Shown piece by piece: positions 7,768-41,544 of a stretch of DNA of 41,544 nt. The DNA comes from Parvularia atlantis (Eukaryota): contig CALSCO010000429.1 of the NCBI GenBank assembly GCA_943704415.1, positions 1 through 41,544 on the forward strand, given 5' to 3'. The position numbers and the translations under genes are program-made. How positions within the stretch are numbered: position 1 is the stretch's first letter; every line of letters begins with the position of its first letter. The notes beneath the pieces are model-generated. The model made no database searches. It was not told the DNA's origin and saw only the letters and a list, made by a program, of their open reading frames with translations.

Positions 7768-9258
7768 TCAGTTGGTCGGGAGCTTCTCGAGCACGGCGCG
7801 CATCTGCGCGACGACCGTGTCGACTTGCTCGGCGCTGACCTGGTGGTGCATGACGAAGCGGACCTGCGTCGGTGCGGCCGCGGGGTGCGTCAGGCAGGCA
7901 CAAGCTCACCGGCGGGCGACGCACGCGGTCGCCGTAGCCGCCGCAGCCCGTGCCGAGCTCGCGCAGCTGCGCGATCAGCGTCTCGGCCGTGAGGTCCTTG
8001 CGCGTGATGTTGACGAAGACGATGTTGGTCTCGACCGTGTCCACGTCGACCGCCACGCCGAGCGGCGCCAGGCCCGCGATGCCCTCGGCGAGGCTGCGGC
8101 CGTGCGTCGTGAGCACGGCGTCGCGGCTGAGTGCGCAGGCCGCACCGCTTGGCGTTCGCGTGGTCCTTGGCCAGCACGCTCGGCATCTGCTCGAGCGCGA
8201 TCAGGCCGGGCGCGGCGAGGACGCCGGCCTGGCGCATGCCGCCGCCGAGCGCTGCGTCCACGGTCAGCCGCGCGACGTGCGGCACGGGCAGCGAGCGCGC
8301 ACCCTTACGCAGACGGCGTGCGTGGTAGATGAACGACTTGCTGCCGACGATGACCGAGCCGACGGGCGCACCGAGCGCCTTTGAGAGGCAGATCGAGACC
8401 GAGTCGGCGGCGCGGACCATGCTGCGCGCGGCCGTGAGCACATCCACGCAGCACGCGGCACCCGCGACGCACCGCGCCGGGTCCTCGTTGAGCTTGATCG
8501 CGGCGTTCATGATGCGCGCGCCGTCGATGTGCAGCTTGAGGCCGTGCTGCATGCAGCACGCGGGCGTGAGAAGAGTGGGCGCGGGCGCGCGACACGTGCC
8601 TTCTGCGCCAGCGCGCCCACGGCGTCGACGTACGCCGTCGGCAGCACGCGCCCGCCGCGGCGGTTGTGCGTGTTCTCGAGGCAGATGACCTTGGTCACGG
8701 GGTAGTGCGGCTGCGGTGCCGCGCGATCAGGACCAGCAGAGCACGGCAGCAGCAGACGGCGCACGTCGTCGCTGCGGATCGCGTGCTCGATCGCGTCCAG
8801 CGCCAGCGTGCCGTCCAACGCCGTCGGCAGCACGCGCGGGTGCGCGCCGCCCAGCTGCGCCGCGCCGCCCTGCTCGTAGTAGTAGATGTGCGCCTCGTCG
8901 CCGACGATGTACTGCGCGCCTTTCCCCCTTCAGACCGCGCCCCGCACGTGCAGCACGCGCCGCGCGCACCTCACTGCCGCGCTCGCGGCAGTGCGTGAGC
9001 ACGCTGATCAGGTTGCCCATCGTGCCCGTCGGCACCAGCAGCGCCGCCTCCTTGCCAAACAGCGCCGCCGCGCGCGCCTGCAGCGCGTTCACGGTCGGGT
9101 CGTCGCCGTAGACGTCGTCGCCGACCTCGGCCGCCATCATCGCCTGCAGCAACGCACGTCAGGCCACCGCCGCGCGCCAGGGTGGCAGCGCGCCGTGCCT
9201 CGCGCATCGCCGCCGTCGGGCGCGTGACCGTGTCGGAGCGGAGGTCGACCGAGAGCAT
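7768..9258 (-). CDS. GLY1: Low-specificity L-threonine aldolase (PLP-dependent); 7 introns, 2 with GC donors
   Basis: [44 protein letters not shown]-lysine motif [21 protein letters not shown]. Confidence 0.95.
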
Positions 9259-9394: not shown

Positions 9395-10977
9395 TTAATG
9401 TTGACCGGGAAAGGCAGACGCGGCAGGTGAGTCGAAACGCCCACCTTGAACTCGACTCAAATCGGCGGCCCGGGCCAGAAAACTGCCACTGGCAGGTCGA
9501 GCGTCAGCGGTACCGCCAAAGGGCGACGACTGAGAAAATACGAAGGGCGCCGAGAAAGCGAAGCCGCCTGAGCCACTGGGGAAGTTCATCGGCCGCGGCG
9601 GTGCCGGCGTCGCTGCAACGCCGAACGGAGATACCGACGTCGTTGTAATGTTGCCCAGCTTGCTGGCGTCTGCGTTCAAGATATCGGCCAGGCGAGGCTG
9701 CCACCCAAACGAGACGGCCGTCGTCGTCTGCACCAGCGGCTTGTCGTCGATGCGTTCGAGCTGAAGCGCGTCCACGCGCGTCAGCAGCTGCTCGCGCGAC
9801 TTGGCCGACCGGAGAGACACATCGTCCGTCAGTGCGGCCGCCACCGCCCGCGCCCGCTCGATGTGGTCCAGCGTCAGCAGCAGCGCGTCCTTCTGCTCCA
9901 GTAGCGCCTTGATGTCGGCCGTGAGGGCCATGTGCACCTCGTTCTCGAGCTCGCGCTTGCGGTTGCGCAGTTCGGCCACCTTCTGCTCAAGCGGCTCGAT
10001 AAGGGGCAGAAAGCAGTCGGTGATGCTCTTGAAGACCTTGCCCTTGTGCTCCTCAAGCTGCCGCAGCGCAGCTTCAACCGCGTCGATGGCAGCCTGGACC
10101 TTCCACTGCTGCGGCTCGAGCGCGCTGCTGAGCGAGGCGATGGCCGCGCGCTGCTTCTCGAGGCCGTCGGCCAGGGCGATGAACGGATGCGCGGCGTGCG
10201 GCGCAGTGGCACAGTCGGCACAGGCCAGGTGGTCGCATCGATCGCAGTACAGGGTCGCACGGTTGGCCGGGTGCGCGCGGCACATCAGGCCCATCGGTGC
10301 CGCGCCGGGCTTGGCCGTCACGACGTGGTCCCGCGTTGCCTTGGCGCGCTGGTGCGCCCGGGCATCCTCGTCGCACAGGTCCATGGCGCACGTCTCGCAG
10401 CAGTGCGTCGCAGGCGCCTCCTCGCAGGTCGCACAGACAACCGTCACGCTCGCCGCGCTGGCCACCACGGGCTCAAGCAGGTCGGCGCGGGAGAACTCGG
10501 CGTGGCAGTACGTCAGGCCGAGCAGGTACAGGCACTTGCGCGGCTTCTCCTTCGTCTTGTGCACGCACACCGCGCAGATCGGGTGCAGGCATGGCGTGCG
10601 GCCCGCATCCGCGCCGAGCACCTCCAGGCAAAACGGACACGCTGCGCCATGCACGCAGTGAGCGAGCGCGTGCATCGGCCGCGAGACGCGCGCGCACCCG
10701 GTGGCTCGTCGCTCTCGACCTCGGGCGCAGGCGCAGGCAAGGGCACGGGCGCCGCGATGCCCGGCAGGAGCGACGTGACGAGCGCGGCCACGGGCGGCGT
10801 GACCATCGGCGGCGGCGTGACCATCGGTGGGCCGGACGACGTGCCGACGATGCGCGACGGCAGCGGCGGCTGCGGCGACGTGGCCGTGCGTGCGGGGCCG
10901 CTGGTGGGCGTCCCTATGCGCGGCATCGGCGCGCGCGCGCTCGTGTCGCCCACGTCGACGGACGCGAAGCGGCGCAT
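9395..10977 (-). CDS. TRIM/RBCC-like protein: Pro-rich N-terminus, RING-like, B-box1, B-box2, coiled coil; one intron 10642-10697
   Basis: CPFC...TPCLHPICAVC (RING-like); CATCEEAPATHCCETCAMDLCDEDARAHQRAKATRDH (B-box1); CRAHPANRATLYCDRCDHLACADC...HAAH (B-box2); heptad-rich region follows. The GTGCGC...CTCAC...GCAG intron joins ORF 10513-10977 in frame. Start codon uncertain. Confidence 0.8.
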
Positions 10978-11892
10978 GGACTGCGCAAAGTGACTCTTCG
11001 TTCAGCATTTGCTCTGAGAGGCATGCATCCCCTTCGACTGCAGCTGTCGCCAGTGCCCGCGCGCCTTTGACACCGAGCGCGGCCTCGCCGTGCACGTCGG
11101 CCACAAGCACCCGATGTTCTCGCGGTCGCCGGGCGCCGGTCGAGCGGACGCGACGCGCGGGACCGGTGCTGCGCAACGCACTGCACCGAGCGCGTCGGGC
11201 GTGCGCGGCGACGGCGTAAGTGGCGACGGCGCGGGCGCGGACGTGGGCGAGAGTATCGGCGTGGCGTGCTCGTTGTGCGGGCAGATGCTTGTCAACAGGC
11301 ACGTCGTGGTCATTCACGAGGCCCGTATCCACCGTCGACCCGGGGCGTCGTCGTGGTCAACGCCCACAGCGACTACCACCGCGAAACCTATGCGCTTCAC
11401 CTGCGCTGCTCAGCGCCGCCGTCGAGCGCATCCGCTTCGCCGTCAAGGGCGCGCTGCTGTGCTTCGCCAAGCATGTGCGTGCGCGCGCATTGTTGGTGCT
11501 CGATCTGCACTGCGCGCTCTTTGTTGCGCTACCTCAGCTGCGGTTTTTCGAGGCGGCTCTGCGGCAGCGTCGCGATGCGTCGCTTCAAGCTGACGGACAT
11601 CTTGGACGTGCTGGACCCGATCCTGGGAGCGGACTGGTGGACCGCGGACGCAGACGACCAGCGGCTGATGCACTACATGCGCACGGTCAACCGCCTGTAC
11701 GACTGGCACTTCTCGCTCAACCTCAAGTTTGCCATCTCCGACCGCGTCTTCCACGAGCAACAGACCGACGGAGCCGCGCTAGCGCCACGCCGCTACGCCC
11801 GCGGTGAGTTCATCATGTCGTTCTGTGCAACGGCATGCGCCCGTCGCACCAACCGTGATCCTGTGCCGCAGCCGACTGCACCGGAAGGTTGA
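10976..11892 (+). pseudogene. Degenerate gene with two C2H2 zinc fingers and an unknown C-terminal domain
   Basis: CRQCPRAFDTERGLAVHVGHKH (about 11045-11110) and CSLCGQMLVNRHVVVIHEARIH (about 11267-11332). Coding-like blocks continue in three frames (GVVVVNAHSDYHRETY; LLSAAVERIRFAVKGALLCFAKH; MRRFKLTDILDVLDPILGADWW...), which needs at least 3 frameshifts. Probable introns 10990-11043 and 11475-11537. Confidence 0.6.
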
Positions 11893-17208: not shown

Positions 17209-20200
17209 CTAGCGCGTGCCCATGGCGAGCGGGTACGGCAGTGCGGCAGGCATCCTGTGCACGGCACAGCAGTGAGCAGACAAAGTCGCAAACGGCGTGG
17301 TGGCCGCACCGCATCGCCGCCGCCGCCGCCGTCGCCGTTGCGGCCACGGGCGTGTTGAAGTTGCGGTAGTTTTGCTTGAACCAGTCAAAAAGGTCGTTGA
17401 GGTCGGAAAAGTAGCGCCTGTTGACCGAGTGGCGGAAGCGGAAGCCGTTGGGCGTGACCGTGATGACCTGCGCAGCTTGATCAGCAGCACCGCAAGCGAC
17501 GGCACCGACCAAACCCGCACCTCCTGCCGCACGCGATCGCCGGGCCGGTACACGAGCGTGAGCTGGTCCGGTTGTTGCGGGTTCTGGCAGATGTAGTACG
17601 GGATGGCGTTTGCGTTCGCCTCCTTCTCTTTGTTGACAAGGTACGCTGGCCGCAACGCGTCGCCTCAGTCACAGCAGGCACACACGCACGCCCTTGGCAC
17701 GCACCGAGCTCCTCCGGCGTCGTGTTGCGGTACTTGCGGTGCTGCAGCGCGTCGTTCATAAACATACCCATGGGCTGCACGTAGCGCGCGAGTACTGGCG
17801 GTTGCCGCGAGTGCATCAGCGTCGCGAGTTCGCCGGCGAGAAGGAGCGCACCTTCGTCCACGTCGTTGAATCGCTCCGAGCCGATGTACAGCGCGCGCCC
17901 GAAAATGTCGTACGTGTTGGCGCTCTCCTCGGACCGCACGTGGATGTGAAGGAACAGGCCCGGGCCCATCTTGACCGTGACGGCGAGGAAGTTGTTGCCC
18001 TCGGACGACGGCCTGCGCCACGACCCACATCAGACGACCCGCACACGCACAGGCCGACAAGCCACCGCAGCAGGTACTGCCCAACCGGCGCGTCGGCCAG
18101 GTGCTGCTCGGCCTCGAGGTAGCTGTAGTCGCGGAAGGCCTCGTGGTTGATCATGCGCGCGCGCGCCTTGCGGGCCTTGCGCCGCTCGTTGACTGCGCGA
18201 ACAGGCGCGTGAGCGGGCGCACAGTGAACGATCTGGCAGCCTGGGCACGCACGCGCGTCGTTCTCCATGTCCTGCTCGTGCGCGCGCTCGTCGTAGTACG
18301 CGTCCAGCCGACGGCCCATGAGCGCCGAGCGGCGCGTGTCGAGCACGTCGCGCGGCTTCATCGTCAGCTCGACCGTGAAGCGCTGTTTGTCCACCTGCGC
18401 CCGGCGCGCGGCGTCAAGCGGCCATGGCGAAATTGAGGCGACCGCACGTTGAGCACGCGGCCCTGGAGCAGGTCGCCCGGCGCGACGAGCGTCGTCAGCA
18501 CGGGCGTGCCCTCGTCCAGGACGTTGTTGGCAAACACCTCGCCTGCGCACGGCCGCGTTCAGTCATCGGCTTTGCTCGCTCTGCGTCTCCCGCATGCACG
18601 CACCAAACAGGCCCGAGTCGAGGCGCACGTCGATGCGCACGTCCGACACGCGTGTCACCACGGCGCTCACGAGCAGGCCCACCCGCAGCGTGTCGTCGCT
18701 CTCGCCCGTCAGCAGCTCAAACAGATCGGCCGGCCTGCGGTCGCGGCTGCGGCTCAGCGCTCGCTGTTGCACGAGCGCGCGCGTGGCAACGCACTGCATG
18801 TACGACTGGCGCAGTTCCTTGAACGGCTCGCCCAGCTCACGTTGCAGCATCCGCAGCGTGTGCACGCGCCGCCAGTCGCCCATCTCGGCGAGCTTGTTGG
18901 CGTACTCGCGCAGTTGCTCGTCCGAGAACATGTGCAGGCGCTGCACGCCGTCCGGCAGCAGTTGGAGCTGCTCAACGATGGCCGAGTCGCTCTCGAGCTC
19001 GTCCTCCGGCAGCTCCTGCGCATCGGCGCGGCTGTGAGTGGGCGCGCACACACGCATGCACGGCTGCACATGTGCACCTTCTCGAGCGCGTCCGCCGCCA
19101 TGCGCCGCGCAAAGACGTAGCTCTCGCGGTGGATGCGCGTCCGGTCGAGCACGTCGATCGGGTACTCGCTGTCGTCGTCGGCCCCTCGCCGCCGCTTGCC
19201 GCGCTTGGACCGCACATTCGGGTCGATCTTGAGGAACGCCGAGCAGTTGTCAAACACGGTGGCGAGCATCTCGAGCTGCTCAAGCAGCTGGATGCGCGAG
19301 CGGAGCGTGATGATGCGCTTGTGCGACTGCGTGTGCGCGCACATCGTGAGCACACGCGCGCGCGCGCGCGCGACGCAGCGTGGCGGCGCGCACCGCCGTC
19401 TCGATGAGCTCGAACGCTCGCCGGAAGCCAAGCCCGGGCACGAACGGCAGCACGCCGTGCATGTGTGAATGCGGCAGCACCCGGTTGAGGTCGACGCCTG
19501 CAGCCGCGACAGAGTTGAGCAGCGCGCGCTCGAGGTGCGCCTTGAGCTCCTCACGCGGTACCTGCGCCGCGCACCGGTGAGCGACAGCCCACCAAGCCCA
19601 GCGGCCGCACGCACGCACCATGCCTTGCTGCGGGTGCAGCCGCAGGTACACAAGGTCGTTGTTCGCGCGCGAGACGAGGCCGGCAAACTCGCTGAGCGGG
19701 TCGAGCATGCAGCGGCCGAGCGAGATGCAGTAGTGCAGCAGCGGCGGGAAGTCTGGGAACTCCTTCGTGGACCTGCGGCGAGCGTGCGCAATGCGTGTCA
19801 GCACGCAGCGGCGTCGAGGGGCTACCGAGGGCGCACCGCGGCGACTTGCCGTACAGCACCGCGACCTCATCGTCGACGTACAGTACCGGCGGGCTGTATT
19901 CCTGCATCTGCAGGGCATCACACGTCAAACCAGCCGCGACACAGCAGCCGTACGACGCGCACCCGCTGCGTCAGACGCGTCAGATCCTCGTACAGCCGCC
20001 GCGCGTCAAGGCCAAGGGTGCCCACGATGAGCACGGCGGGCCGGTGCCGCACGATGAAGTCCTGCAGCGCGTTCAGGTCATCCTGCTTCTCTGCGGGCAT
20101 GGCGCAGCGAGGTCAGCACCGGGCGAGCAGCAGGCGTGCGAGCGCACCCTTCGAGACAATCAGGTCCATGCCGCGCTCGCCCGCACGCGTGTTGCGCTGG

Positions 20201-23588: not shown

Positions 23589-26500
23589 GATGCGCCTCGC
23601 GGCCGTCGTCGGCACGACCGCCGACCGCGCCACGCTCTGCCGCGCCAGCCCTGCGCCGCACGGCCCGCTCGCGTACGCCGCGGGGGCGGTAGTCGTGCTG
23701 CACGATCTCGCGCACGACAAGCAGCTCGCGTTCCTGCACCACGGGAGCAACAACGCCGTCGCAGCGCTCGCGTTCTCGGCCGACGGCGCATACCTGGCAG
23801 TGGGCGAGGTCGGCCACGACCCGCGCGTGCTCGTGTGGGACACGGCCTCGTTCGCGCTTGTGTGCGAGGTCGCCGGTGCGCACCGCTTCGGCATCGCCTG
23901 CGTCGCCTTCGCCCCGCGCCAGCCCGACCTCATCGTCTCGGTTGGCGTGCCGCACGACGGCGCGCTCATGTTGCACAACTGGCGCACGGGCAAGAAGGTC
24001 GCATCCAACAAGATCTCGAGCAAGGCGCGCGCGGACGACGCTGCGGCTGCTTCTCCGTGTGCTGACCGCAGCGCGCCGCACCGACAGGTCCACGCCGCCG
24101 CGTTCCTTGCCGACGGCCTCACGTTCGTCACGGCGGGCCACCGCCACCTCAAGTACTGGAGCCTGCATGGCATCGACGAGTTCGCGGGCCGGGTGCGCTG
24201 TGCGCACTGGCGCCGTTCTTGCTAACGAGCGCGCACACAGGGCCGTGCGGTCGCGCCGCAGCTCGTCGAGGGCCGCTCAGCCGTGCTCGGTGCGAGCCGC
24301 CGCTCGCCAAGTGGTCCCCTCACACGCTGCCACACGGCGCAGGCGACTACCGCGAGGCGACCTTTGTCGACGTGCTGGCAGACGAGGTCGACAACCGCCT
24401 CTTCGCGTTCACGAGCGCCGGTGTGCTCTGCAGCCTCGGCCCGAACCGCACGATCGAGCGCTGGGTCGGCCTCAAGGTGCCAGCGCACAGCCGTCGAGTG
24501 CAGGGCTGACCACGGCTCGCAGGCGCCGACGTCGTTCTGCCTCACGCGCATCGGCCAATATCTCGCGTGCGGCTGCAACGACGGCGTCGTGCGGTGCGGG
24601 CAGACGTGCTGCAGCGACGTGTGCACTGACGCGCAAGAACGACAGGCTTTTCCGCGCGACGGACTTCAAGTACGTGACGACGCTGCCGCGTGCGCACTCG
24701 CTGCCGCGCGCGGACGACGAGGACGAGAGGTGCGACAGTTCTGCTCTGCGCTGGCCGTGCATGCTCACGCGCGCGCATGACGCAGTACCAAGCGCGTGTG
24801 GCCCGACTGCGTCGCCGTGAGCGGCCAGGGCGCGCACCTCGTGACGTGCCTGTACTCGGACCGGTCGCTGGTGCAGTGGAACATCGCCGGTGTGTGTTGC
24901 TCGTGCGTGTGGTGCGTTGCCGACGCTGTGCAGGGCTGGACGAGGCTGGCGAGGCGACACCCGCGGCGCTGTCGCGCAAGATCGAGCCCCAGCGGGGCCT
25001 GCGGTTCCCGAGCAGCGCCGTGTGGGACCTGGCCGTGCGTGTGCCTGCGTGCGCCTGCGTGCAGCCGCGTCTCGGTCGCCTAACCGCCGCGTGTGCCAGA
25101 TCGTTGAGACCGAGCACGGCCCACGCGTCGTCACGGCCGCGTCGGACGGCTGCCTGCACGTCGCGGACGTGACCGTGTCGACCATGCCGTCGTCGGGCAC
25201 CGCGGCGCGCGTCGTGCCCGTGCAGCCCAACATCGGTGTGCTGCAGCGGCGGCACTCGGGTGCGCACCTGGCTGCACACGACGCTGCTGGCATCGCTCAC
25301 CGCACGTGCACCAGGCATCGTCGACACGGCCGGCAGCATGGTCAGCACGACCGACGCGCGCGGGCTGCGCTGCCTGCGCCAGAGCAAGGTGCGGCTGTCC
25401 CGTTGACCTCGCGAGTGCTGATCGCACGGCAACACAGGACGGCAAACTGGCCGTGACGGGCGACCGCGGTGGCAACCTGATCGTGCTCGACACGGCCGGC
25501 TGGACGCGGCTGGGTGCCGTGGCGGCGCACGACAGCGAGGTCGTCGCGCTGGACGTGTGCGTGGTCAAACCTGGCGGTGCGTGTGCGGGGCACCTCGCAC
25601 CGTGTTTGCTGACTGCGCCTGTGGCCAGAGCGCTGGCTCATCGCGTCCGGCAGCCGCGACCGGCTGATCCACCTGTTCGAGGCGAGCTTTGCAGACGCGT
25701 CGCGCGAGCAGCTCGAGCTGGTGCCGACGCAGACCTTTGACGAGCACACGAGCGCGATCACGGCGTTGTGCTTCGGCGCGCAGGGCACGTCGCTCGCATC
25801 GAGCGGTGCCGACAAGTCGGTCATCTTCCGCACGCGCGCGTCGTCGGCGAGCGGTGCACGGGTGTGTGCGCCGCGGCCGTGGCTGCACTGCGCTTGCTGA
25901 CGGCGCTGTGCAGTTTGTCCTGCAGCACCACCACGCGATGCGCCAGACCGTCTTGGACATGGCAGTGTCTCAGGTGCGCCGCCAGTGGCACTGTGGCGAC
26001 AGAAGCGCTGACGCAGGTGCAGGACGGCGCATCGCTCGTCGTCGTCGGGCAGGACAAGCGCATTGCGCTGTACGACGTGCCGAGCGGCCAGCCCAAGCGC
26101 AGCTTCAAGGTCGACGGCATGGACCAGGCGACGGTCGCCGTCGCGCTCGACTCGAGCGGCACGGTCGCATTCCTCACGACCGCGGGCAAGAACATGCACG
26201 TGGTCGACCTCGCGACCGAGACGCTCCTCGTGGACGGTACGCCTCTCGCCACCAATTGCCGGCACGCCTGCTCACACGTGCGGCAGTGCGCGGGCCCGGT
26301 GAGCTCGTGACGGCCGTGCAGTACATGCCGAAGCGACAGCGGCTTGTTTGCGCGTCGGCGGACGGCTGTGTGTTCCACTGGCAGGTGCCTGAGCCGTTCG
26401 CCCGCACGCCGTGTGCTCACCGCAGCCGCTCGCAGCTGTCGCCGTCGCTGTGCCGCCTCCTGGCCGAGCGCGCGGGCAGCGCTGCGCAGCCGACTGAGAA

Positions 26501-27821
26501 AGAGAACCAGGGTGCGTTTTGCAGCGGTCGCGGCAGTGCATGGTCTCACCCGCGCGAGCCCACGCAGGCACGGTCGTGCTCAGCGCCAACCTGCCGTCGT
26601 GGCTGCGAAACAAGCTCGATGGCAGCGCGCCGTCGCCCGCTCAGCCGTCGCAGCCGCCGTTCGCTTTCCAGCAGGGCCGCTGGGCGGCGCCGCGCGAGCT
26701 GCAGGTGCACTCGGAGGCCAAGGGCGCGAGTGTCGTCGTCAATCTGAGCAAGCCGCTCAACGCCGACCGCCGCCTGACGATCGAGCCGGAGCATAACGGG
26801 GCCGTGGTGCGCACTGCCGCGCTCGGGAAGGGCGAGCTGACGGCTGCGCGCAGGCGAGCGTGTACGACACGTTCTCGCAGCGGCTCGAGGAAGACGAAGA
26901 GGCGTTTGCGCGCGACGCAGCGCTTGCGGTGGGCGATGCGCCCGTGTACGTCTCTGTGCCGCCGACGCCGAGCCGCGCCGAGGCGCTGCCGGTCGACAGC
27001 GACGTCGACGCGCCTGCGTCGCTCACGGCCAAGCTGCTGTCGAGCATGGTCGAGCCGAGCAAGGAGCCGACGGACGAGGACCTGCAGACGGCGCGCCCAA
27101 GCCTGTCGTCGCGCTTCCTGATCGGGTCGCGGTCGGCCAAGGTGCGCGGCCCGCGAAGGTGCTCTCGTCGACGGCTCACACAGGACGGCAGGCCAACCGC
27201 GTGCCGGAGCTGATCTTTGCCGACCGCATGACGACCGAGCCGCCTGCGCCAGCAGTTGCGACAACAACAGCGCCGGCGCCGCTGGCCGGCAAGAAGCGCG
27301 ACCGCTCGGGCAAGAGCATGGCTGAGGAGGTCGAGCGGACGCGCATGCTGCTGGCCAAGATGGGCATGGCGCCCGGTGCTGCTGCTGACCCAGCGGACAA
27401 GCCTCTCGCGACCACGCCCGCCAAGCCCGAGCCCGCGCCCGTGAAGGCCGAAACCACGCCCGCGCCAGTGCGCTCCGCGACGCCCCCCAAGGCCGAGACC
27501 GCGCCTGTTCAGCCAAGCCCCGAGACCGAGCCCGCGCCGCCAAAGCCAACGTCGCTGCTGGACGAGATCGCGGCCACCAAGGGCCGCCTCGAGCAGCTCT
27601 TTGCGCGCCTCGACGCGGCCGAGGTGCGTCTGAGTGCACGCTCACGACGCTCATGTCAAACTCAAAACGGGCAGACCGCGGCCGAGCGCGAGGGCGCGGA
27701 CGAGTTCCGGCGCTGGCTGCACCTGCGCACAGCGCCGGCGCCGTCCTCGGCCGAGCGGCGCCTGCTCGAGACGTACTCGGAGCGGCTGGTGGCGCTGGTC
27801 TCGTCGCGCCTCATAACCTAA
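23530..27821 (+). CDS. WD40 repeat protein, WDR62/MAPKBP1-like; about 20 introns
   Basis: LAYAAGAVVVL, LAFSADGAYLAVGEVGHDPRVLVWD, HRFGIACVAF, VSVGVPHD, FVTAGHRHLKYW, LAVTGDRGGNL, AHDSEV, ASGSRDRLIHLF, SADGCVFHW and C-terminal LLETYSERLVALV match the family pattern. Confidence 0.88.
23538..23586 (+). repeat. (GCA)n trinucleotide repeat (poly-Ala if ATG 23530 is used, otherwise 5' UTR)
   Basis: About 16 GCA units between ATG 23530 and ATG 23590. Confidence 0.9.
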
Positions 27822-29719: not shown

Positions 29720-31130
29720 TCAGAAGAAGAACTGGCGGTGGTTGTGCGTGATGATGCTCTGGTACGCGCCGCGGTAGACGTCGCAGTGCGCCTCCTGCAG
29801 TCGTGGCCGGCTCGTCTCAGCGTGGGCATAACGGGCGCGGGTGCGCACCGTCACGAGCGCACGCACACGCGGCTCGTCCAGCGCGCCGTCGTTGCTGGCG
29901 CCGCACGTGATCAGCACAGGCACCTGCCGCTGCAGCGCGGCCTGGTACACGAGCAGGTTGCGCTCCTGCAGCCCTCGCCTGCGCGATCGCACGTGTCATG
30001 CCTCGGCGCAGGCGTGCACACAGCGGGCGCCACCCCCGCACCGCGTCAGCTGCAGCTCGCCGCGCACGAGGTGGCTCACGCCGGCCTGGTAGATGATGAG
30101 CTGCGGCATCGCCGAGTCGAGTAGCCGCCCGAGGAACGATTTGAGCAGGTCGAGGTACGCCGCATCGGGCGTGTTTTCCTGCACGGCGCGTACATGTGTC
30201 AGCGCGGTGCGGGCCGTACACGTCGGGGGCGGCCCGCACGCGCCTCGTAGTCGACGTCGTAGTCGCTGTGGTTGCGCGTCGCGTGCGCGTGCGCGGCGTG
30301 CATCGAGAACGTGATCACGCGCTCGTCGTCCTTGAAGATCGACGCCGTGCCCTGCGTGCGCGCGCAATCAGTGCTCGTGCGCCCACCAACGCCCCGGCGC
30401 GGCACACACGTCGCCCTGCTGCATGTCGAGGTCGCAAATGAGCACGCGCTGCACACTGTATTGCTGCACCGCGACGACTGCCGGCCGCACTCAGCCGGAC
30501 GCGCGGCTGCGTCAGGCGGGACGCGCGACGCACCCGCCGCCACAGCCAGGTCGTTGAAAACGCACCCAGGCCCCTCGCAATCGCGCGCGGCGTGGTGGTA
30601 GCCGCCCGTGAGCGTGCCCGCGATCATGTGTTGCCCTGCGAAGCGCATCAGCTGGAGCATCGTGCGCGTCGCACGGTCGCGGCGCACCCTGCTTGATCGA
30701 GTCCAGCGCCTGCAGCGCTGCGCCGACCGCGCGCCGCGACAGCTCGACCTGCTCGTCCGTCGCGGCCTACGTCGGCCGCCCGCCGTGAGCGAGCCGCACG
30801 CGATCGAAAGCGCGCGCGGCGCACGAGGACGCGGTCGACGTAGGCCGCCGAGTGCACCGTCAGCAGCTCGTCGCGCGTGCATCGCCGCGCCGGCTCGAAG
30901 ACAAAGCCGGGGAAGTCGCGCAGCGTCGCGTGGACGCTCCCGAGCACGCCCGCGCCCGGCGCCGCCTCGCCCAGCGCCGACGCCGCATGGAAGAGCGGCT
31001 GTGCGCGGCACCGCCGTCAGACGTGCAATCATGCCTGTGCACGATCACGCGCACGCACCACGCGCTGCGGATGCACGTTGAGCGAGCGCAGCGCCGCCAC
31101 GCCCGCGAGCGACGACAGGCGCCGCCTCAT
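29720..31130 (-). CDS. Histone deacetylase-fold protein (class IV/bacterial-like), apparently catalytically degenerate
   Basis: ELLTVHSAAYV, GGYHHA, CVFNDLAVAA, DLDMQQGDGTASIF, VITFSMH, IIYQAG; ATG 31130 begins MRRRLSSLAGVAALRSL. Confidence 0.85.
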
Positions 31131-31844: not shown

Positions 31845-34489
31845 TCAGTGCGACAGCGTCGACTGGTGTGCCGCCGAGCTCTCGCTCTTCATGATCTCGC
31901 GCAGCACCATCGTCGCGTAGGCCGACGGCGGCAGCGTGAAGGCGATCTGCAGCGCCTTGTAGCGGCCCTCGGGCAAGGGCGCGGGCAGCGTGCGGCCGAG
32001 CAGCACGTCGAGGTCCGTCTGCGCGAGCGGCTGCGTCGGGTCGTCGTATCGCAGGATGGACCTGAGCCCGCGCATCGCCCTGGTCAGCAACGCACGCGCG
32101 AGCGTGCTGAGCACGGCACGAACCACTGCAGGTCGCTCGGGCGCCCGACCAGGCGCCGGTAGCCGCCCACGAGCGAGTACTCGCTGCGGCGCACGCTCAG
32201 CCTAGAGAGCAGAGTGGCGCGTGTCACACGACGCACGCACCGCACACGGTGCCGCAGGTGCTCGGGCTGCACGCCGAGCTCGGCCATCGCCGCCTCATAC
32301 TGGCGACCGCACGCGGCCATAAGCAGCCGCAGCGTGTGTATGCGCAAACAGCACCTCCTGGCGCAGCCCCTTGCCCGGGTACTCGACGGCAAAGCCCGGC
32401 AGCGGCAGCACGACGTCTTCGATCGTGTACCGCGGCGCGGTCTCGTCCGTCAGCAGCACAACGGCCGGCAGCGGGCGCGGCTCGTCCGTGGGAGGCGCAG
32501 TCGGCTCGGCGCCCGAGCTCGCCGACGACGCAGTCGGCGCCTCGTCGTCGGCCACCGTGCCTGCCGCGGCGGCTTCGTCCGTGACAGCCGCGTCCGCCTC
32601 AGCCATCCCTGCGAGCGTGCGGTCAGAGAGCCGCCTGCGGCGTGGCAGCAATGGCGCACAGGAGCCGTCCGAGCCAGCAAAGACGAGGTCGCCGGCGACA
32701 GGCGCGGGGCCGAGCCGCTCGAGCCGCAGCGTGGCCATGCGGTTCCAGACGAGCGACTGAAACGAGTGCACGTACATGAGGCGCATGCTGCGCGGCAGCT
32801 GTGGGCGTAGGTGAGCACGGGAGCGCAGCGCATCGCGCACGCACCTGGCCAAGCGCCGTCGAGTACTCTGACGAGCCGCGCTGCACGAGCGCCTGCAGCA
32901 CCGTGCGCTCGATGTACGACCTGCGCGGCCCACGCGGTCAACGAGCGGCGTGCGGCGAGCGGCGCACTTTTCAGGCATCAGCTCGAGCGCCTTCTTCAGG
33001 TCGCCGGCCGCGTAAGCCGCCCGCGCCGCCTCCGTGTAGACGTCTGCGGGGCACCCGTGAGCGGCCTGTCACCTCTGCGCTCGTATGCGCACCGCCCTCG
33101 CGCGGCTTGAGCAGCAGGTGCACGGCCTCCTTCCAGTCGGACCGCAGCAGCGCGCAGCCGATCTCGTACCTGCGCCGACGGTCGGTTGGCCGAGCGCGAC
33201 GCTGACTGCGCGCGCGCACACGCACGTCGAGACGGTGGTTGTGCCGAAGCGCTGCTGGCCAAAGTAGTTGACGTAGCCGTGCGTCTGCAGCTCGCCGACC
33301 GCGCGCGCGACCTCGTCGTCCGCCGCCGTGACGTTGCTGTGTGTGTGCGCCACGACTGAGCCTGGGCGGTTGGTGTGCAGGACAAGCGCACCGCAGCGTG
33401 ATCGTGAAGCGGTTGCCGCGCAGCTGGCCGAGGTACAGCTGGTCGGCGCGGCACCTGGCGCGGCCGTGAACCAGCTGCGTGTTTTGCGCCACTGAGACGC
33501 ACGAGAAGTTGCCGACCTGCATGCCGCGCAGCCGCGGGTTGAGCGCCTCGAGCCGCTGCGGCGGCACGCCTTTGAGGGACACTGCGCGTCGTGCACGCGT
33601 CAGGCGGGTGCACAGAGCAGGGGCTCACGCGCCCTGCTGCACGGTCACCGCGCGGCGGTCCTTGGTGCCTGCGTACGCAAACTGCTTCTTGGAGACGCTG
33701 CCGGCCGCGGGCGTGAGCGGAACGTGCGCAGGCGGCGTCGCGGCCAGGCTGCCTGCACCGCAACAGCTTGGCGAGCAGCTGCACGGCCTCGAGCGTGTCG
33801 CGGTTCTCCTTGAGCAGGAGGAAGTGCGCAAAGGGCCGCGCACGGTCGATTTGCGGCTCGCGGCTGACGCCTGCGCCGCGCCACAATCAGGCAGCAAGCC
33901 GGGCAGCAAGCGGCAAGGCAAGGCGCGCACGTTGCCGGCGCTTGGACAGCGACGCGTGCATCACGCTCACGACGCCGTGCGACGTCTCAGACGCCAGCCG
34001 CGGGCACAGCGCGCGGATCGCCGCGTGGAAGCGCGCACGCGCGTCGCCCGCGTCGTCCGTCAGCGTCACGTCGAGCTGCGGCGCGCCGGCCGCGTCGTCG
34101 GCCGCGTCCATCTCGACGATGCGCTGCGCCACGGCCGCGCCGACGAGCACGTCAAGCGCGGCACGCGCGGCGGCCGGGTCCGCGGCGGGCGCGGACGCCG
34201 GCGCATCCGCCACGAGCGTCGTGAGGCGGCAGACGCGGCCGGCCAGGTCGACCTCGTTCACGAGAAAGTCGACGTAGCTGCGCGCGGGCGCGCCTCGTGA
34301 GCCCAGGAACGACGCACGAGCGCGTCAAGAGCTCGCGCACCGCTCCTTGACAATGCCGCCCACGCCCACCGCCCCGCCCGTGCGGTACGTGGCGATGCCG
34401 AAGCGCGCGTCGCGCAGCAGCTCGGCGCGGGCGCGCTTGGGGTCGGCGGCGGCACTGGCCGTGGCGGCGGTCTCGAGCGCGCGCTTCAT
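31845..34489 (-). CDS. PUS7: Pseudouridine synthase Pus7 (TruD family); about 12 introns
   Basis: GIVKER/YVDFLVNE, catalytic AGTKDRRAVTVQ, LGQLRGNRFTITLR, NYFGQQRFG, YVHSFQSLVWN, DVVLPLPG, FTLPPSAYATMVLRE. Alternative start at 34504. Confidence 0.95.
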
Positions 34490-34525
34490 CAGGATTCGGC
34501 GCATGCGAAACCGATTCGCGACACG

Positions 34526-36871
34526 ATGCGCCAGGTGCGTGTCATCGCGGCCGTCGCGGGCGTCCTGCTCGTGGCGCAGCTCGCGGCGTTGTGGCTGCTG
34601 CTGCCGCGTGCCGACGACGCGGCCGTGCTGCCAATGGCGACGCCGGCGACGTCGCTGCGGCGGACGGGCGCGTGGGCGGCGCTGACCTGGGCCGATGCGG
34701 ACGACGACGACGACGACAACGACGCGCACGAGCTGATCGCCTGGTGGTTCGCGCGCCACGCCCAGCCCGACGCGCGCGCGACCGGCTGCAACGAGGACGA
34801 CGCGTGCGCCGTGCGCGGCGCGTGGCGCGACGGCCGCGGCGTGTGGCGCGTGGCACGCGGCGCGGCGGTCGCGTCGATCGGCGTTGCGGACGACGTGGCA
34901 AGGACGCGGTGCCGCGCGTGGACCGTGCTCGACGGCGCGCCCGTCGTGCTGCTGCGGTCCGACGACGACAGCGGCGGGAATGGCGACGCCTGGTCGATCG
35001 GGGTGATGGCGCTGCTGCACGTCGTCGCGGCGCAGCGCCGCCTTGACGCGCCCGTCGTGAACGTGCTCTGCGACGACTGCGCGCGTGCCGCGCCGCGCGT
35101 GCTGCACCGCCTTCAGACGCTGCTGCGCCGTGCCGTGCCGCGCACCGCGATCTTCGCCCCCGATGCGAGCGGCGCGTGCGTCGCCGTGGACGTCGCCGTC
35201 GTCGGCACGCCGCGCGGGCTGGTCGAGGCGCGATCGCGCGAGCACGCGCCCAATTTCGCGCGGCACCAGCGGGCGCTCGCAGCGCTGCGCACGCTGCTCG
35301 AGCGGCTTCGCGGCCTGCTGCTGCCGCCGCGTGGGGGCGGCGTGGATGGCAGCGGCAGCGGCGTCGTTGCGCACCTCGTCGATCAGCCCGACGTGGACGA
35401 CGACGTGCTGCGCGCCGTGGCGGCCGCCATGAACCCGCGCGATGCGCCGCACGTGCTGACTGCGCTCGACCTCATGGACGACCGCGACGTGGTGCGGCGC
35501 ATCGAGACGCTCAACACCGCCGACCTGCTCGTGCTGCGCCGAGACGAACGGCTGCTCGCGCTCGTACCGTGGCTACGCCCCGGCTGCGTCGTCGTCGAGC
35601 TGATCGCGGCCGACGAGCGCCTTGCCCTGCCCTTCCAGACGGTCCTCGGTGCGCTCGGCGTGCGCCACCTCGCCCTCGTCCTGCCGCACGCGCCCGGGCT
35701 GCCGCCGCACGCGATCGACCGAACGTGGCTCACCGCGGCTCTGCGCTCGCCCGCCGCGCACGACACGGCCGCGCTCGTCGCCGCGCGCTTCCTGCTCTTC
35801 CAGCCGTGGGAACAGCTCAACAACCAGGTGCGCGTGCACGCATGCGCGTATGTGCTGCTGATCATGCGTCGCGCGCAGCTTGTCGCGTTCCGCAGCGCGT
35901 GCGCCGTCGCCATCTTCACCAACCGCACACTCGTCCTGCCCTACCTTGGCTTCCGGCGCGACGCGGCGCAGCGCTGGAACTTTGACTTTGCGATCGAGGC
36001 GTTTGAGTGGCGACCGATGGAGCGGTACTTTGACAACGCGGCGCTGCTGGACCTGCCGTGCCGCACGGTCTCGTACGCGCTCTTCCGCGCGGCGACGGGC
36101 AACCGCGGGGCCGAGCGGCTGCTGTTCAACCCGCTGCTCAACCACACGACGGCCGGGCAGATGCAGGCGTATTACGAGGGCGTGCTGCAGCTGCCGTTCC
36201 GCTCGATCAGCGCGACGCAGCGGCTGGACCAGCTGAGCGAGGGCAAGATCCGCGCCTACTACGGCAGCCTCGCCGCCGAGCAGGTCCTGCCCATCGGCGT
36301 CGCGTTCTGGCTTCACGACTTTGGCCGCAAGCTGCACTACCCCTACCGCGAGTACCACGACGTGATGGGCAACGCGCTCTACGCCGCGATCAACCGCGGC
36401 ATGCGGCCGCGCCCCGACCTCGCACGCGCCGCGCAGCAGATCGCTGAGCGCGTCCGTCCGTTTGTGGCGTTGCACGCGCGCGTTGGGCAGGACTACGAGC
36501 TCAAGTGCACCACGGTCAAGGACGATGTCGCGCGCGCACGCTGCCTGCCCGCGCCGGGCGCGATGGTCGCGCGGACCCTCGCCGCGATCAGCAACGCCAC
36601 CGCGGGGGACTGGAGCGTCTACGTCATGTCGGACCAGCCCACGCTCGAGCTGCCCTTCCCGGCCGCGCCCGACCCGGTCGCACCCCGCCGCGTCTTCTCG
36701 CGCGTGGACGTCGTCGGGGCGTTTGACGCGCTCGACCCAATCGAGACGTCGCTGCAAGAGCAGGCCATCAGCACCGCGGCCGACGTCTTCATCGGCAACA
36801 TCTTCTCATCCTTCAGCCGCACGGTCTTTGAGCAGCGCCAGCTGGCCGGGCGGCCCTCGCTCTCGTGGTGA
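34526..36871 (+). CDS. Type II membrane glycosyltransferase: degenerate GT61-like domain plus O-fucosyltransferase-family domain; probable in-frame intron 35828-35878
   Basis: N-terminal TM anchor; ADLLVL...WLRPGCVVVELI (GT61-like); EQLNNQ/LVAF...TNRTLVLP, FVALHARVGQDY, VYVMSD, EQAISTAADVFIGNIFSSFS (O-FucT). Confidence 0.8.
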   Translation: MRQVRVIAAVAGVLLVAQLAALWLLLPRADDAAVLPMATPATSLRRTGAWAALTWADADDDDDDNDAHELIAWWFARHAQPDARATGCNEDDACAVRGAWRDGRGVWRVARGAAVASIGVADDVARTRCRAWTVLDGAPVVLLRSDDDSGGNGDAWSIGVMALLHVVAAQRRLDAPVVNVLCDDCARAAPRVLHRLQTLLRRAVPRTAIFAPDASGACVAVDVAVVGTPRGLVEARSREHAPNFARHQRALAALRTLLERLRGLLLPPRGGGVDGSGSGVVAHLVDQPDVDDDVLRAVAAAMNPRDAPHVLTALDLMDDRDVVRRIETLNTADLLVLRRDERLLALVPWLRPGCVVVELIAADERLALPFQTVLGALGVRHLALVLPHAPGLPPHAIDRTWLTAALRSPAAHDTAALVAARFLLFQPWEQLNNQVRVHACAYVLLIMRRAQLVAFRSACAVAIFTNRTLVLPYLGFRRDAAQRWNFDFAIEAFEWRPMERYFDNAALLDLPCRTVSYALFRAATGNRGAERLLFNPLLNHTTAGQMQAYYEGVLQLPFRSISATQRLDQLSEGKIRAYYGSLAAEQVLPIGVAFWLHDFGRKLHYPYREYHDVMGNALYAAINRGMRPRPDLARAAQQIAERVRPFVALHARVGQDYELKCTTVKDDVARARCLPAPGAMVARTLAAISNATAGDWSVYVMSDQPTLELPFPAAPDPVAPRRVFSRVDVVGAFDALDPIETSLQEQAISTAADVFIGNIFSSFSRTVFEQRQLAGRPSLSW

Positions 36872-36947
36872 CCCGCCCCTCTCTCGGCGTGCGCACGCGC
36901 TCCTTGCAATGTTGTACACTCACACTCACGCACACGCTCACACCGGA

Positions 36948-39900
36948 TCACTTCTTCTTGAACTGGCGCACGGCCTGCTCCAGCTCGCGCACCTTGGCGT
37001 GGCCCTTGCCGTACGCCTTGGTCATCAGTTCGAGCGCGCGCACGAGGTGCGTCTGCGCCGCGGCGCGGTCGTTGACCTTCTGGTGCATCACCGCTGCGGC
37101 GTAGTGGCTCTCGCCGAGCGCCGCGGGCGCATTGTCAATCTTGCTGGCCTCGCGCATGGCCAGCTCGGCCTGCGCACGTGCGCGTGAGCAGCGCCACGTC
37201 GCACAAAAGACAGCAGCGCACCTCAAGCAGCGGCAGGGCGCGCGACAGGTCGCCCATGCTGCGGTACACCTGCCACATGGCGTTGTACGTCGCGATGGTC
37301 TCCGGGTGGCTCTGGCCCAGCAGCGTGTGCCGGATCGCTAGCGCGGCCTCGAGGCACTCGAGAGCGCTCGGGAAGAACTTCATCGTGTTGTAGACGGCCG
37401 CGAGGGACGCGTGCGCCGCGGCCGTGCCTGGGCTCTGCTCGCCGTAGGTCGCGCGCTGCACGGCCAGGCCCTTCTGGTGCAGCTCGAGCGCGCGCGGGTG
37501 GTCGCCCAGGTGGCTCAGCGTGTCGGCCACGGCAGCGTAGGCCGCGACGAGCTCGGGGTGGTTGTCGCTCAGGATCAGCCGCTTGATCTCGAGCGCGCGC
37601 TCGTACAGCTCCAGCGCCCGGTCGGCCCGGTCCATGCGGTCGTAGACGGTCGCAAGCGTGTGGTACGACGACGCCGTCACCCGGTGGTTCTCGCCCAGTT
37701 GTGCGCGCCGGATCGACAGGCACCGCTCGTACGCCGCGGCCGCGGCCTCGAGCCTGCCGGCCTCAAACAGCTGGCTGCCCTTGCGCACGAGCAGGAACGA
37801 CTCGGTCAGGAGCACACGGGCGTCCTCCTTGTCGAACGAGGTCGCGGTCATGATCTGCGCACAAGGCGGTCAGCGGGCAGCGCGGTGAAAGGGGCAGCGG
37901 CACACGCAAACGCACCGCCTGCGCGCGATCCGCGTCCTGCACCGCCGTCGCCCAGGCCTGCACAAGCACGTGGTCGGCAAGCGACAGCGTCGCGTCCTTC
38001 TGCACCGTCGACGCCACGCGCCCGTACAGGTCCGCCAGCTGCGCCTCGCTCCAGCGTGCGCGCAGCAGGCCCCAGCCCTGACCCACGCCCAGCGCCTCAA
38101 ACAGCGCCATGAGCACCGTCGGCGCGAACGGCAGCTCAAACAGCGCGCGGTTGATGTGCGCCCGCGCCGCGTCCACAAACGCCAGGCCCGATGCGACGTT
38201 GCCCGTGTTGTACAGCCAGACAGCCTGGGCAAGGCGGTTGATGTAGTACAGCTGGAACCGCTCAATCGCGACGCTGTCGCACACCAGGTCGTCGCACCCC
38301 GGCACGCTCGTCACGCGCACGTGCTGCCCGTCGCGCCGCACCACGCCGTCCGCCAGCAGCAGCTTGAGCGCGGCGCGTGTGCTCCCGTTTGGCAGCTGCT
38401 TGCCGATCACGTGTGTCCCAATCACCGCCATCGCCGCGTCGACCTCAAACGGCGCGCGGAACACCGACAGCGCGCGCCACATCTGCAGCTGCGGCGGCGG
38501 CGTCACCTCGGCCAGGTACCGCTTCAAGCGCGCCCCGTTGATCACGGCCTCGAGCCGGCCGGGGATGCCCGACTTGGCAGTAGCCGCCGCAGATGTCAGA
38601 ACGCGCAGCACCTTGGCCAGCTCGGCCGCAGGCTCCGCACCGAGCGCGTCCACCGCCACGGCAAACACGCGCTGGCCCGACACGGACGCGGCCGCGCGGC
38701 TCGTCACAAGCACGGTGAGCAGCGCCTTGCGCGACGCCGCCGTCGCCTTGAGAAGCCACTGCGACGCCGACGCCGACGACACGCCCGTGTCCATGTTGTC
38801 GACGACGATGAGCGTGCGGTGCGCCAGCGCGGCGCTCCAGCTGACCAGGGCGAACGCGTCGCCGTGGTAACCCGCCGCGTCGGCGCGCTCGAGCACGGTG
38901 TACGGCACGTCCTCGGCCGGGATGCCGGCCGCCTGCACAAAGTAGACGCGCTGGAACTCCGCCATCTCTAGCGCGCGCCGCGCCACCGCCGCGGCCACCG
39001 CCGATTTGCCCGCGCCCGCCTCGCCGTGGAGCCAGATGACGGACGCTAGCCGCAGCGCACGTCAGCACAGTCGCACGCACAATGCTCGCGCCACGAGCGC
39101 CGCACCGGTGAGCAGGCTCTTGCTGACCGCGGCAACGGTCGCGTCGCGCCCGACAAAGCTGGCCGGCACGACGGGAATGTCGCGCAGGGCCATGACATGG
39201 TGCGGCGCGGTCAGGCCCGTGCGCTTGCCGAAGACGCTCTCAAACAGCTCCGAGACGCGCCCGGTCGGCGGCGGGTGGAACACGCGCGCGACCGTCGGCG
39301 CCGAGACGGTCCGTCCGTCGCTCGTGAGCAGGTCACGCAGCGTCATGCGGTTCTCGGGCGTGAGCAGCTTGGACGCCGAGATGCCTGTGCGCGCGCGCTG
39401 AGCATAGAGCGCCTACCAGCGCCGCGGCCGCGCACCCTCGTCCACGTCGATGAAGCGCATAACGTGCGCCAGGAACGAGTCCCACTCGGGCCGCTCGTTC
39501 TGGAAGTGCCGCCGCCAGAGCACGCGCACCCACGTCTGCGCCATGATCAGGTGAGGCCCAAAGTCAAGCTTGGACTGCATGCCCTCGACTTGCACGCGCG
39601 CCGCCGCGTTGGCGTCCTGCAGCTCGTCGCGCAGCTCGTCGACGTCCATGTGCAGCTCCGCCGCCAGCTCGGCCAGCTCGCCCGCCTTGGCCGCCGAGAG
39701 CACGTCGTCCACGCCGCCGCGCGCAAAGAGGCCCTCGGTCACCAGCACCGCGGCGTCCTCAAACGTGCTCACGCGTTTCTGGGCGGGCGCGGTCGTGAGA
39801 CATCGCGCCACGCAAAGCGCCAGCAACCACGCACCAGCTTGAGCGCTGGCAGCAGAGGCTCTAGGGTTGACTGCAGCTCGGCCGGCAGCCGCAACCACAC

Positions 39901-41544
39901 CGCCTGTGCGTCGCAAGATGAGTAAGCGCACGAGTGGCCAGCTCGGTGCAGCGCACATCGACGTCCTCGGCCAGGTTGCGGTTGGCTTTGTCAAACGCCT
40001 GGTCGACCTTGGCAAACCTGCGCGGCCCCAACGAGTGAGCTTGACTGGACGCTGCCGGCGCCATGCAGCTGCACCGCTCCGAGTCGGGCTTGCCCGTGAG
40101 GATCTTGCGCAGGTAGCCCTTGCCGGTGTACAGCGCGAGGAACTCGTGCGCTTGCACGCAGATCTGCGTCAGGGTCTGCACAGCGCGCGCCGGGTCAGAG
40201 GTCGCACTCGGTGCGAGCTGCAGCCGCTGTGCACCTCCACGGTCGTCTCGAAGAAGTGCTCGAGCGTCGGCGGCTCGGCCCCGTCCTCCTCGGCATCCTC
40301 GTCAGGCTCGTCCTCGGCGGGCAGCAGCAGCGTGACGTCGGCCGCAAACAGCGCGTCCAGCACGGCGCGCGACGCGTCGAGCCGCTCGAGGATCTTGCTG
40401 CAGTTGCTGTGCACGATCTTGACCCCCGCGATGCGCGCACGCAGCGCGTTCAGCTTGCTCAGCGCCTCGCTGACCTTGGCCGGCACCTGCTGCTCGACCG
40501 GCGGCTGTTCTGTTGAGGGCTGATCGGCCTGCTGTTCGGCTGACGGCCAGCGAGGCTCCGCTGGCGAGAAAAGCTCGGCTGGCATCTGGTTGGCGGGCTG
40601 CTCAGTCTCGGCCGGCGTGAGCTGTTGTTCGCTGGTCTGCTGCGCCGTCTCCTCGACGGGCTCCTCACTCACCAGCACGGCTTGCTCAGTCGCAGCGGGC
40701 TGCTCGGTCAGGGCCTGCTGAGCGGGCTGCTCGTCCAGGGGCGACACGGGCTCAGGAGTCTCCTCGTCTTGCTCAACAAAAAGCTCCTCTGCATGCTTGC
40801 CAGAGCCATTTACAATCACCAGCAGCGGTGCGATCGCAGGCCGCGGCGAGAACGGGACATCGTTGTTGCCGTCGTCAAAGAGCGATTGCGCGGCCGACTT
40901 GCCGGGCGGCGTGCTCGCCTGGGCTTGGTGCTGCTCTGCCCCGGATGGCTCTGCGGGCTCGTCGTCGCCAAAGAGCGATCGCGCAGCATGCTCTGCACTC
41001 GGCTCTGCGAGTTCGGCCGTTGCTGCGGGCTCAGCCGCTGCGGCGGGCTCGCTCGGCTCAGCGGGCTCGCTCGCGCGCGGTGCAAACTGCTCGTGATCAA
41101 AGAGGGCGTCCACAGCGCTCGTCCGCATCTCGTCTCTTTCGTCGTTCAAGAGCGGCTGCGATGCCTTGACCTCCGGCTCGACATGCTCGGCGCGCTCGTC
41201 CATGTACGGCGCGGGCTGCTCGTCTTCAAAAAGGGCGCCCGCAGCGCTGGGCCGCATCTCGTCGCTCTTGGCGGGCTCGTCGCTGAAGATCGGCTGTACA
41301 GCCTGCACAACATGCTCGGCGCGCTCGTAAAGATCGTGCTCGCCATCGTCAAACAGTGGCTGCACCACGTCTTCGGCAGGCTTACTCGGCTCGGTCAGCT
41401 GCTCAGTCGTCTCCTTGGTCAGCTGCTCGCTCGGCTGCTTGCTCGGCAGCTCGCCCGGCTCGCTCGGCTGCGTGGCGAGCGGCTCGCTTGGCTGCGTGGC
41501 GAGCGGCTCGATTGGCACGGTCGGCTCGCTCGGCAGCTCGCTCG
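36948..41544 (-). CDS. NLR-like STAND NTPase: acidic disordered N-terminus, MLKL-like helical domain, NB-ARC-like NTPase, TPR repeats; 5' end beyond the window
   Basis: FVGR pre-motif; Walker A GEAGAGKS (39025-39002); Walker B TLIVVDN; sensor VLVTSR; winged-helix-type LSVFRAPF; kinesin-light-chain-type TPRs (RALELYERALEIKRLILSDNHPE). Canonical introns join the exons in frame. Confidence 0.85.
41455..41520 (-). repeat. Coding 24-bp tandem repeat (EPLATQPS) in the acidic N-terminal region
   Basis: GGCTGCGTGGCGAGCGGCTC occurs twice with 24-bp period, with related PSEP units around it. Confidence 0.75.

Follow-up and report, generated by a model that had tools for sequence, protein, structure and literature searches.

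The minus-strand locus at one end of contig CALSCO010000429.1 raises the question of whether parts resembling those of an NLR-type receptor belong to a single protein and, if so, what the unusual N-terminal part of that protein may do. The stretch analysed here, called the window, comprises 41,544 nucleotides. An initial annotation had placed at 36948..40500 an NLR-like receptor with an MLKL-like helical domain, a Cbl-type EF-hand-like segment, a STAND NTPase, and tetratricopeptide repeats (TPRs). We report that the STAND-TPR gene is real and expressed. Its product may be a ligand-triggered NLR-type switch whose N-terminal module recruits partners rather than piercing the membrane itself, a reading that we favor tentatively and that falls a little short of probable.

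The peptides quoted in that annotation lie on the minus strand and are spread over several frames. Nine exons joined by eight GT..AG introns, each of 51-61 nt, give a spliced frame of at least 1381 amino acids (aa) without an internal stop and with a single terminal stop at 36948-36950. A single 4971-nt contig of run X2, spanning 36121 to 41543, lacks all eight introns at the predicted sites, and thus the helical, NTPase, and TPR parts constitute one gene; their separation into distinct genes, which the annotation had named as its possible refutation, is excluded. Run X1, possibly the origin of the window sequence, contributed one unspliced piece over 36900-40400, while run X3, a lake metatranscriptome, contained short matching pieces only (0.14 of words). 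The proposed start of the interval at 36948 is retained, whereas its other end is not: the gene continues beyond 40500 as far as the window reaches, which lengthens the protein by 352 or more acidic residues of low complexity, and its 5' end is open, as the start lies beyond the window edge. The gene and its parts are as follows.

36948..41542, minus strand: whole STAND-TPR gene within the window, nine exons, at least 1381 aa in a stop-free spliced frame, covered by the X2 contig
41542-40235, 40175-40075, and 40017-39957, minus strand: exons 1-3
39903-39835, 39778-39436, and 39384-39106, minus strand: exons 4-6
39045-37916, 37854-37222, and 37169-36948, minus strand: exons 7-9
40487..41542, minus strand: acidic Pro/Glu/Ala/Gln-rich low-complexity N-terminal extension, aa 1-352, 5' end open
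39957..40486, minus strand: helical region, candidate four-helix bundle, aa 353-490, cut by introns 1 and 2
39560..39903, minus strand: helical linker, aa 491-586
39275..39559, minus strand: predicted EF-hand pair with non-canonical loops (W..F segment), aa 587-664, split by intron 5
38657..39187, minus strand: STAND-type P-loop NTPase, aa 694-850
39025-39002, minus strand: Walker A, aa 728-735
38812-38789, minus strand: Walker B, aa 799-806
38710-38696, minus strand: sensor-1, aa 833-837
37916..38656, minus strand: short helical domain, winged-helix-like part, and helical arm, aa 851-1097, names assigned from alignment
36951..37854, minus strand: C-terminal TPR array, aa 1098-1381, period of about 42 residues, 5-6 units

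The possibility that adjacent genes or chance frames had been read as one protein deserved attention, as the window has about 70% GC and contains many long shadow open reading frames (ORFs), 277 of them of at least 100 aa, and the parts of the receptor lie in different frames. Such an artefact is exceedingly improbable, and it is ruled out by the stop-free spliced frame, by the X2 contig with its eight skipped introns, and by a homologue, P0001, which carries the EF-hand segment, NTPase, and TPRs in a single intron-free frame. A tblastn search of the window with the model protein gave no match beyond the receptor gene itself. We infer a unicellular host from the compact, small-intron gene and from the lake metatranscriptome with its short matching pieces, and a protist is the presumed source. 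Compared with the window, the X2 contig has lost three bases in frame at 40268, where an acidic loop ends, and carries one substitution at 40946 within the acidic tail; for X1, the differing positions are 40059, 40118, and 40437. These differences likely represent strain or allele variation.

The core of the protein is that of a STAND receptor. Walker A, Walker B, and sensor-1 are all present, and the intact Walker motifs that had been proposed are found at the positions listed above. In Pfam, the NTPase exon matched NPHP3_N (E 3.8e-6), AAA_16 (6.2e-6), NACHT (7.9e-5), and NB-ARC (0.052). Among these models only NPHP3_N exceeded its cut-off, with a match to about 35 of 164 model positions around Walker A; NACHT (23 against 26.7) and NB-ARC (13.2 against 23.5) remained below theirs with an exon that does not include the first 27 domain residues. 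The NACHT cut-off is passed by the relatives P0002 (30.2) and P0011 (28.7). A single-sequence fold of the exon had a predicted local distance difference test score (pLDDT) of 43, too low for use, and Foldseek returned no match for it at E 0.001. Downstream, P0001 and P0002 are about 33-37% identical to the window protein over aa 905-1097. Bacterial STAND rows can be aligned with aa 905-970, which include the winged-helix motifs, and with a GxP-like motif at aa 880-883; no MHD-like motif was visible in the aligned family rows. Between sensor-1 and the winged-helix motif lie 82 aa in the window protein; six relatives have 80-132 aa there and six bacterial rows 113-147, two truncated rows being set aside. 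The array of several TPRs, also part of the original description, was recovered by Pfam as TPR_12 (E 9.1e-43, four stretches) and TPR_10 (E 2e-29), with repeat marks at aa 1151, 1193, 1235, and 1277. One transcript places this C-terminal repeat array in the same chain as the NTPase. The proposed NLR-type STAND plus TPR architecture, in an unusual domain combination, is supported.

Relatives were sought with the NTPase exon in a HMMER search of 1.84 billion representatives at E <=0.001. It yielded 23 matches, 13 of which (P0001-P0011, P0013, and P0014) form a close group; no name was attached to those members of it that were read. The other ten comprise one multi-NACHT protein, two short NTPase pieces, and seven proteins with HTH, Trans_reg_C, or BTAD heads (P0012, P0015, P0016, P0019, P0020, P0022, and P0023; E 1e-5 to 6e-4), which are HTH/BTAD-STAND-TPR proteins and the nearest NTPase relatives outside the family. 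In a 15-row tree, eight family rows stand apart from seven HTH-type rows with support of 93/94, below the starred level of the tool. This tree left out P0003, P0004, P0006, P0008, P0013, and P0014, which have little or no NTPase, as well as P0017, P0018, and P0021, and P0044 stood in for the cluster of P0005. Of the eight family rows, seven have an intact Walker A (GxxGxGKS), all eight have the first Asp of Walker B, and six have the sensor-1 Arg, so that nucleotide binding looks maintained; the second acid of Walker B is kept in four. The Walker and sensor-1 motifs, like the winged-helix motifs, are common to the family and the bacterial HTH-STAND rows. Identity among family members falls to 25-43%.

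The locus of P0001, referred to as L001, lies alongside an eIF2B-epsilon gene and has a predicted gene of four exons with a 1745-aa frame. Its order is the same as in the window: a start that we take to be SAM-like, 581 low-complexity residues, a helical region, the EF-hand segment, the NTPase, and TPRs. Other searches added little: the word-index protein search found no relative among 2693 candidates with exon 5 or among 7994 with exon 7, and a profile search found P0001, P0011, and P0068 only, among 7992. Locus scans revealed no exon 5 relative in metagenomes and no P0010 relative in viral or prokaryote contigs; in the ESM Atlas, exon 5 matches were all under 0.9 and residues 1-232 of P0001 had no usable match. 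At L001:11832-15050 (+), not adjacent to the homologue gene, ORFs resemble GH25 lysozymes, one matching Glyco_hydro_25 at E 0.0012 and a longer one having repeated units and a C-terminal membrane-like segment.

Within the family, conservation covers the linker, the EF-hand segment, and the NTPase, but is weak in the helical region as judged from the window and L001. Linker residues 514-584 align to P0010 with a score reached by 0/1000 shuffles, and the linker is also present in P0011. For the W..F segment, the score of the alignment to P0010 was reached by 0/1000 shuffles and that of the alignment to P0001 by 1/1000. Each of the three distinct relatives whose sequence includes the NTPase and extends far enough toward the N-terminus (P0001, P0010, and P0011/P0068) retains the segment. 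The EF-hand fold is predicted from the model of the homologue P0001, in which the paired helix-loop-helix arrangement of the EF-hand superfamily is present. Canonical EF-hand calcium loops follow a 12-residue pattern, as given in PROSITE. None of four sequences matches it, and loop position 12 is Thr in 3/3. Hence the pair likely binds no calcium, as far as its residues indicate, and we reject its reading as a calcium sensor. The missing ligands fit a structural or protein-binding role of the segment.

The attribution of this segment to the Cbl type stood in part: an EF-hand-like pair ahead of the NTPase is modelled in P0001, whereas a Cbl type is not favored over a generic one, since the CBL EF-hand was among the top matches with scores tied with those of other EF-hands. 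The tyrosine-kinase-binding domain of CBL consists of a four-helix bundle, an EF-hand, and an SH2 domain. In the window protein only about 30 residues separate the EF-hand end (aa 664) from the NTPase start (aa 694), which leaves no room for an SH2 domain after the EF-hand segment, and we reject a true-Cbl reading. Compared with CBL (PDB 6xar_A), the protein also has no RING domain and no Pfam Cbl match, and about 95 residues of additional helical linker are present.

The helical region presents greater difficulty. It contains four helix-length segments ahead of the NTPase; the first helical motif named in the initial annotation is at 40423-40376, later helices reach down to 39957, and a 17-residue acidic loop occupies 40318-40268. 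Amphipathic character is most marked in the last two helices, where the hydrophobic moment rises to 0.40 and 0.53, against low values in the first two. The pattern of motifs is reminiscent of MLKL N-terminal domains. The MLKL-like label was nevertheless not confirmed by any tool: neither Pfam nor PDB returned MLKL, Cbl, HeLo, or RPW8 for the exon pieces at E <=10, a weak test because the introns leave the domain as fragments of 82, 33, and 20 aa. When PDB was searched by sequence with the N-terminal pieces, with P0010, and with alignments A1 and A3, structures of MLKL, Cbl, or STAND proteins did not appear; NCBIfam gave only weak matches to the N-terminal pieces (E 0.05 or worse), and PADLOC gave none. 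The N-terminal model of the homologue lacks the first helix and has a pLDDT of about 50 in the helical region. Its residues 1-74 match generic helical bundles, Foldseek found no match to the model at E 0.001, and MLKL was absent among the 50 matches listed in two structure comparisons, which does not exclude MLKL. Whether aa 353-490 form a four-helix bundle of the MLKL/Cbl-N group thus appears evenly balanced.

MLKL, HeLo, and RPW8 bundles lie at or near the free N-terminus, whereas at least 352 residues precede the helical region in the window protein and about 670 in the L001 model. Residues 1-352, over which the X2 contig extends as far as 41543, contain 14% Pro and 16% Glu and have a net charge of -60; the 581-aa stretch of L001 is of similar composition (net -49). 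Short tandem peptide repeats occur in the acidic tail at L001:2880-3480 (+), and their copy number, judged by eye, differs between L001 and L002. The L001 model begins with a stretch common to the start of P0008 (0/2000 shuffles reach the score). Pfam gave no confirmation of the SAM label that we assume for it, and the sole tool hint was SLA1 3idw at E 0.61. P0008 itself (767 aa) has this presumably SAM-like start, a low-complexity tail, a winged-helix/arm part, and TPRs, with no NTPase or EF-hand match; it is possibly an NTPase-less variant or an effect of gene calling.

How could such a protein work? By analogy with the STAND switch cycle, as described in PMC4381067, the TPR array would bind a ligand and open the NTPase, ADP would be swapped for ATP, and oligomerization would follow. 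This would cluster the N-terminal module, composed of the helical region, the linker, the predicted calcium-independent EF-hand pair, and the acidic tail, which in turn would recruit partner proteins. Partner recruitment is the likeliest output, ahead of membrane rupture and then of a non-immune scaffold, in view of the degenerate EF-hand, the length and acidity of the tail, and the way in which relatives begin with a SAM-like stretch; an adaptor-type output and any role in defense are read only from the anatomy of the protein.

Membrane rupture would make the protein an all-in-one cell-death receptor: aa 353-490, as an MLKL/HeLo/CC(Cbl-N)-type bundle clustered by the NTPase, would insert into the membrane and kill the cell, the acidic tail perhaps being cleaved or displaced beforehand. 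The four helix-length segments do occupy the effector position, and the acidic tail could serve as an inhibitor. Such fusions are common in fungal NLRs (10.1101/2022.03.16.484565, PMC12881547) and in plant CC(Cbl-N)-NLRs (PMC11218826), and a single structural group has been described that unites the bundles of MLKL, Cbl, HeLo, and CC (PMC10586772). However, in the cases studied it is the first helix that targets the membrane (10.1101/2022.03.16.484565, PMC12881547), while the bundle here is internal, and Wojciechowski et al. cautioned that N-terminally extended bundles should not be presumed killers (10.1101/2022.03.16.484565). In addition, the window and L001 show no more than weak similarity in the helical region (180/1000 shuffles reach the local score and 69/2000 the semi-global score), and the exon pieces lack the family matches mentioned above. 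The internal position and the weak conservation in the sole comparable homologue lower the expectation of direct membrane killing; we consider this receptor type unlikely, though the foremost competitor, and direct pore formation by the helical region similarly unlikely. Somewhat less likely still is a non-immune scaffold resembling nephrocystin-3, in which TPRs would hold a cargo or partner, the NTPase would switch slowly or in modified form, and anchorage to a cellular structure, for example cilia or the cytoskeleton, would be provided by the EF-hand pair together with the tail. NPHP3_N is the one model above its cut-off, but that match is confined to the Walker A stretch, TPR_NPHP3 scored 63.8 against a cut-off of 100, the nearest relatives outside the family are bacterial-type HTH-STAND regulators rather than NPHP3-like proteins, and identity among family members is as low as 25-43%.

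The core architecture itself is not new, because STAND-TPR receptors are known from fungi, algae, amoebae, and bacteria. [quoted passage not shown] The window protein differs by its EF-hand-like pair and linker between helical region and NTPase, by at least 352 acidic residues in front, and by a candidate bundle without an MLKL match; "Cbl" and "EF-hand" do not occur in the main text of 10.1101/2022.03.16.484565. Plant CC(Cbl-N)-NB-ARC-LRR receptors of non-flowering plants share a Cbl-related piece ahead of the STAND domain, but theirs is a four-helix bundle that carries a MAEPL motif and forms the extreme N-terminus, and their repeats are LRRs (PMC11218826). In the window protein it is instead the EF-hand that matches Cbl, the region has an internal position, and TPRs stand in place of LRRs. 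In Acanthamoeba and Ectocarpus, NB-ARC-TPR proteins (PMC4053784; PMC3341825) show a STAND-TPR core outside animals, land plants, and fungi. An immune pattern-receptor role was proposed for them from architecture, and the available part of PMC4053784 describes no helical plus EF-hand module. Plant MCA channels offer a precedent, with an N-terminal MCAfunc domain followed by an overlapping EF-hand-like region, yet they have no NTPase or TPR and the domain is at the true N-terminus (PMC8049495, in the text available). In amoebozoan STAT linkers, an EF-hand motif precedes SH2 (PMC4206453, likewise in part). No exon piece matched MCAfunc in Pfam. The bacterial HTH/BTAD-STAND-TPR regulators, presumably of the AfsR/SARP type, have a DNA-binding N-terminus where the window protein has its helical/EF-hand module, and their helical domain is longer.

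An EF-hand pair fixed ahead of the NTPase across a family was not found in full-text literature searches for the combination, nor among the titles and abstract openings that other searches listed, though N-termini of this kind may appear in the supplements to surveys of NLRs from fungi and plants. A bolder reading, which we hold to be unlikely, is that these proteins represent an undescribed protist NLR family with a Cbl-like head without SH2 (four-helix bundle plus EF-hand) as effector and a STAND-TPR switch, behind the SAM-like start and acidic tail. If so, MLKL/HeLo/CC death bundles and the Cbl adaptor head would trace to one ancestral bundle-plus-EF-hand module in single-cell defense. Were the helical region an MLKL/Cbl-type bundle, the family would provide a direct test of NLR-triggered membrane rupture in single-celled eukaryotes and a clue to the origin of the Cbl head; otherwise, it would add one further receptor architecture.

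The window also contains other genes of eukaryote type. Those at 7893-33624 were called by Pfam on single ORFs, and no immune-type gene cluster is evident among them.

7893-8726: beta-eliminating lyase
9398-11356: B-box protein
17819-18562: SH2_2
25668-26744: WD40 protein, MABP1/WDR62-like
30202-31044: histone deacetylase
32298-33621: TruD
34301-36871, plus strand: convergent neighbor with an O-fucosyltransferase-family domain (Pfam O-FucT, E 2e-10)

Because the receptor-side X2 contig extends to 36121, about 750 bases into the O-FucT gene, the 3' ends of the two genes may overlap in antisense. An assembly gap of 10 N is located at 5088-5097, distant from the receptor gene.

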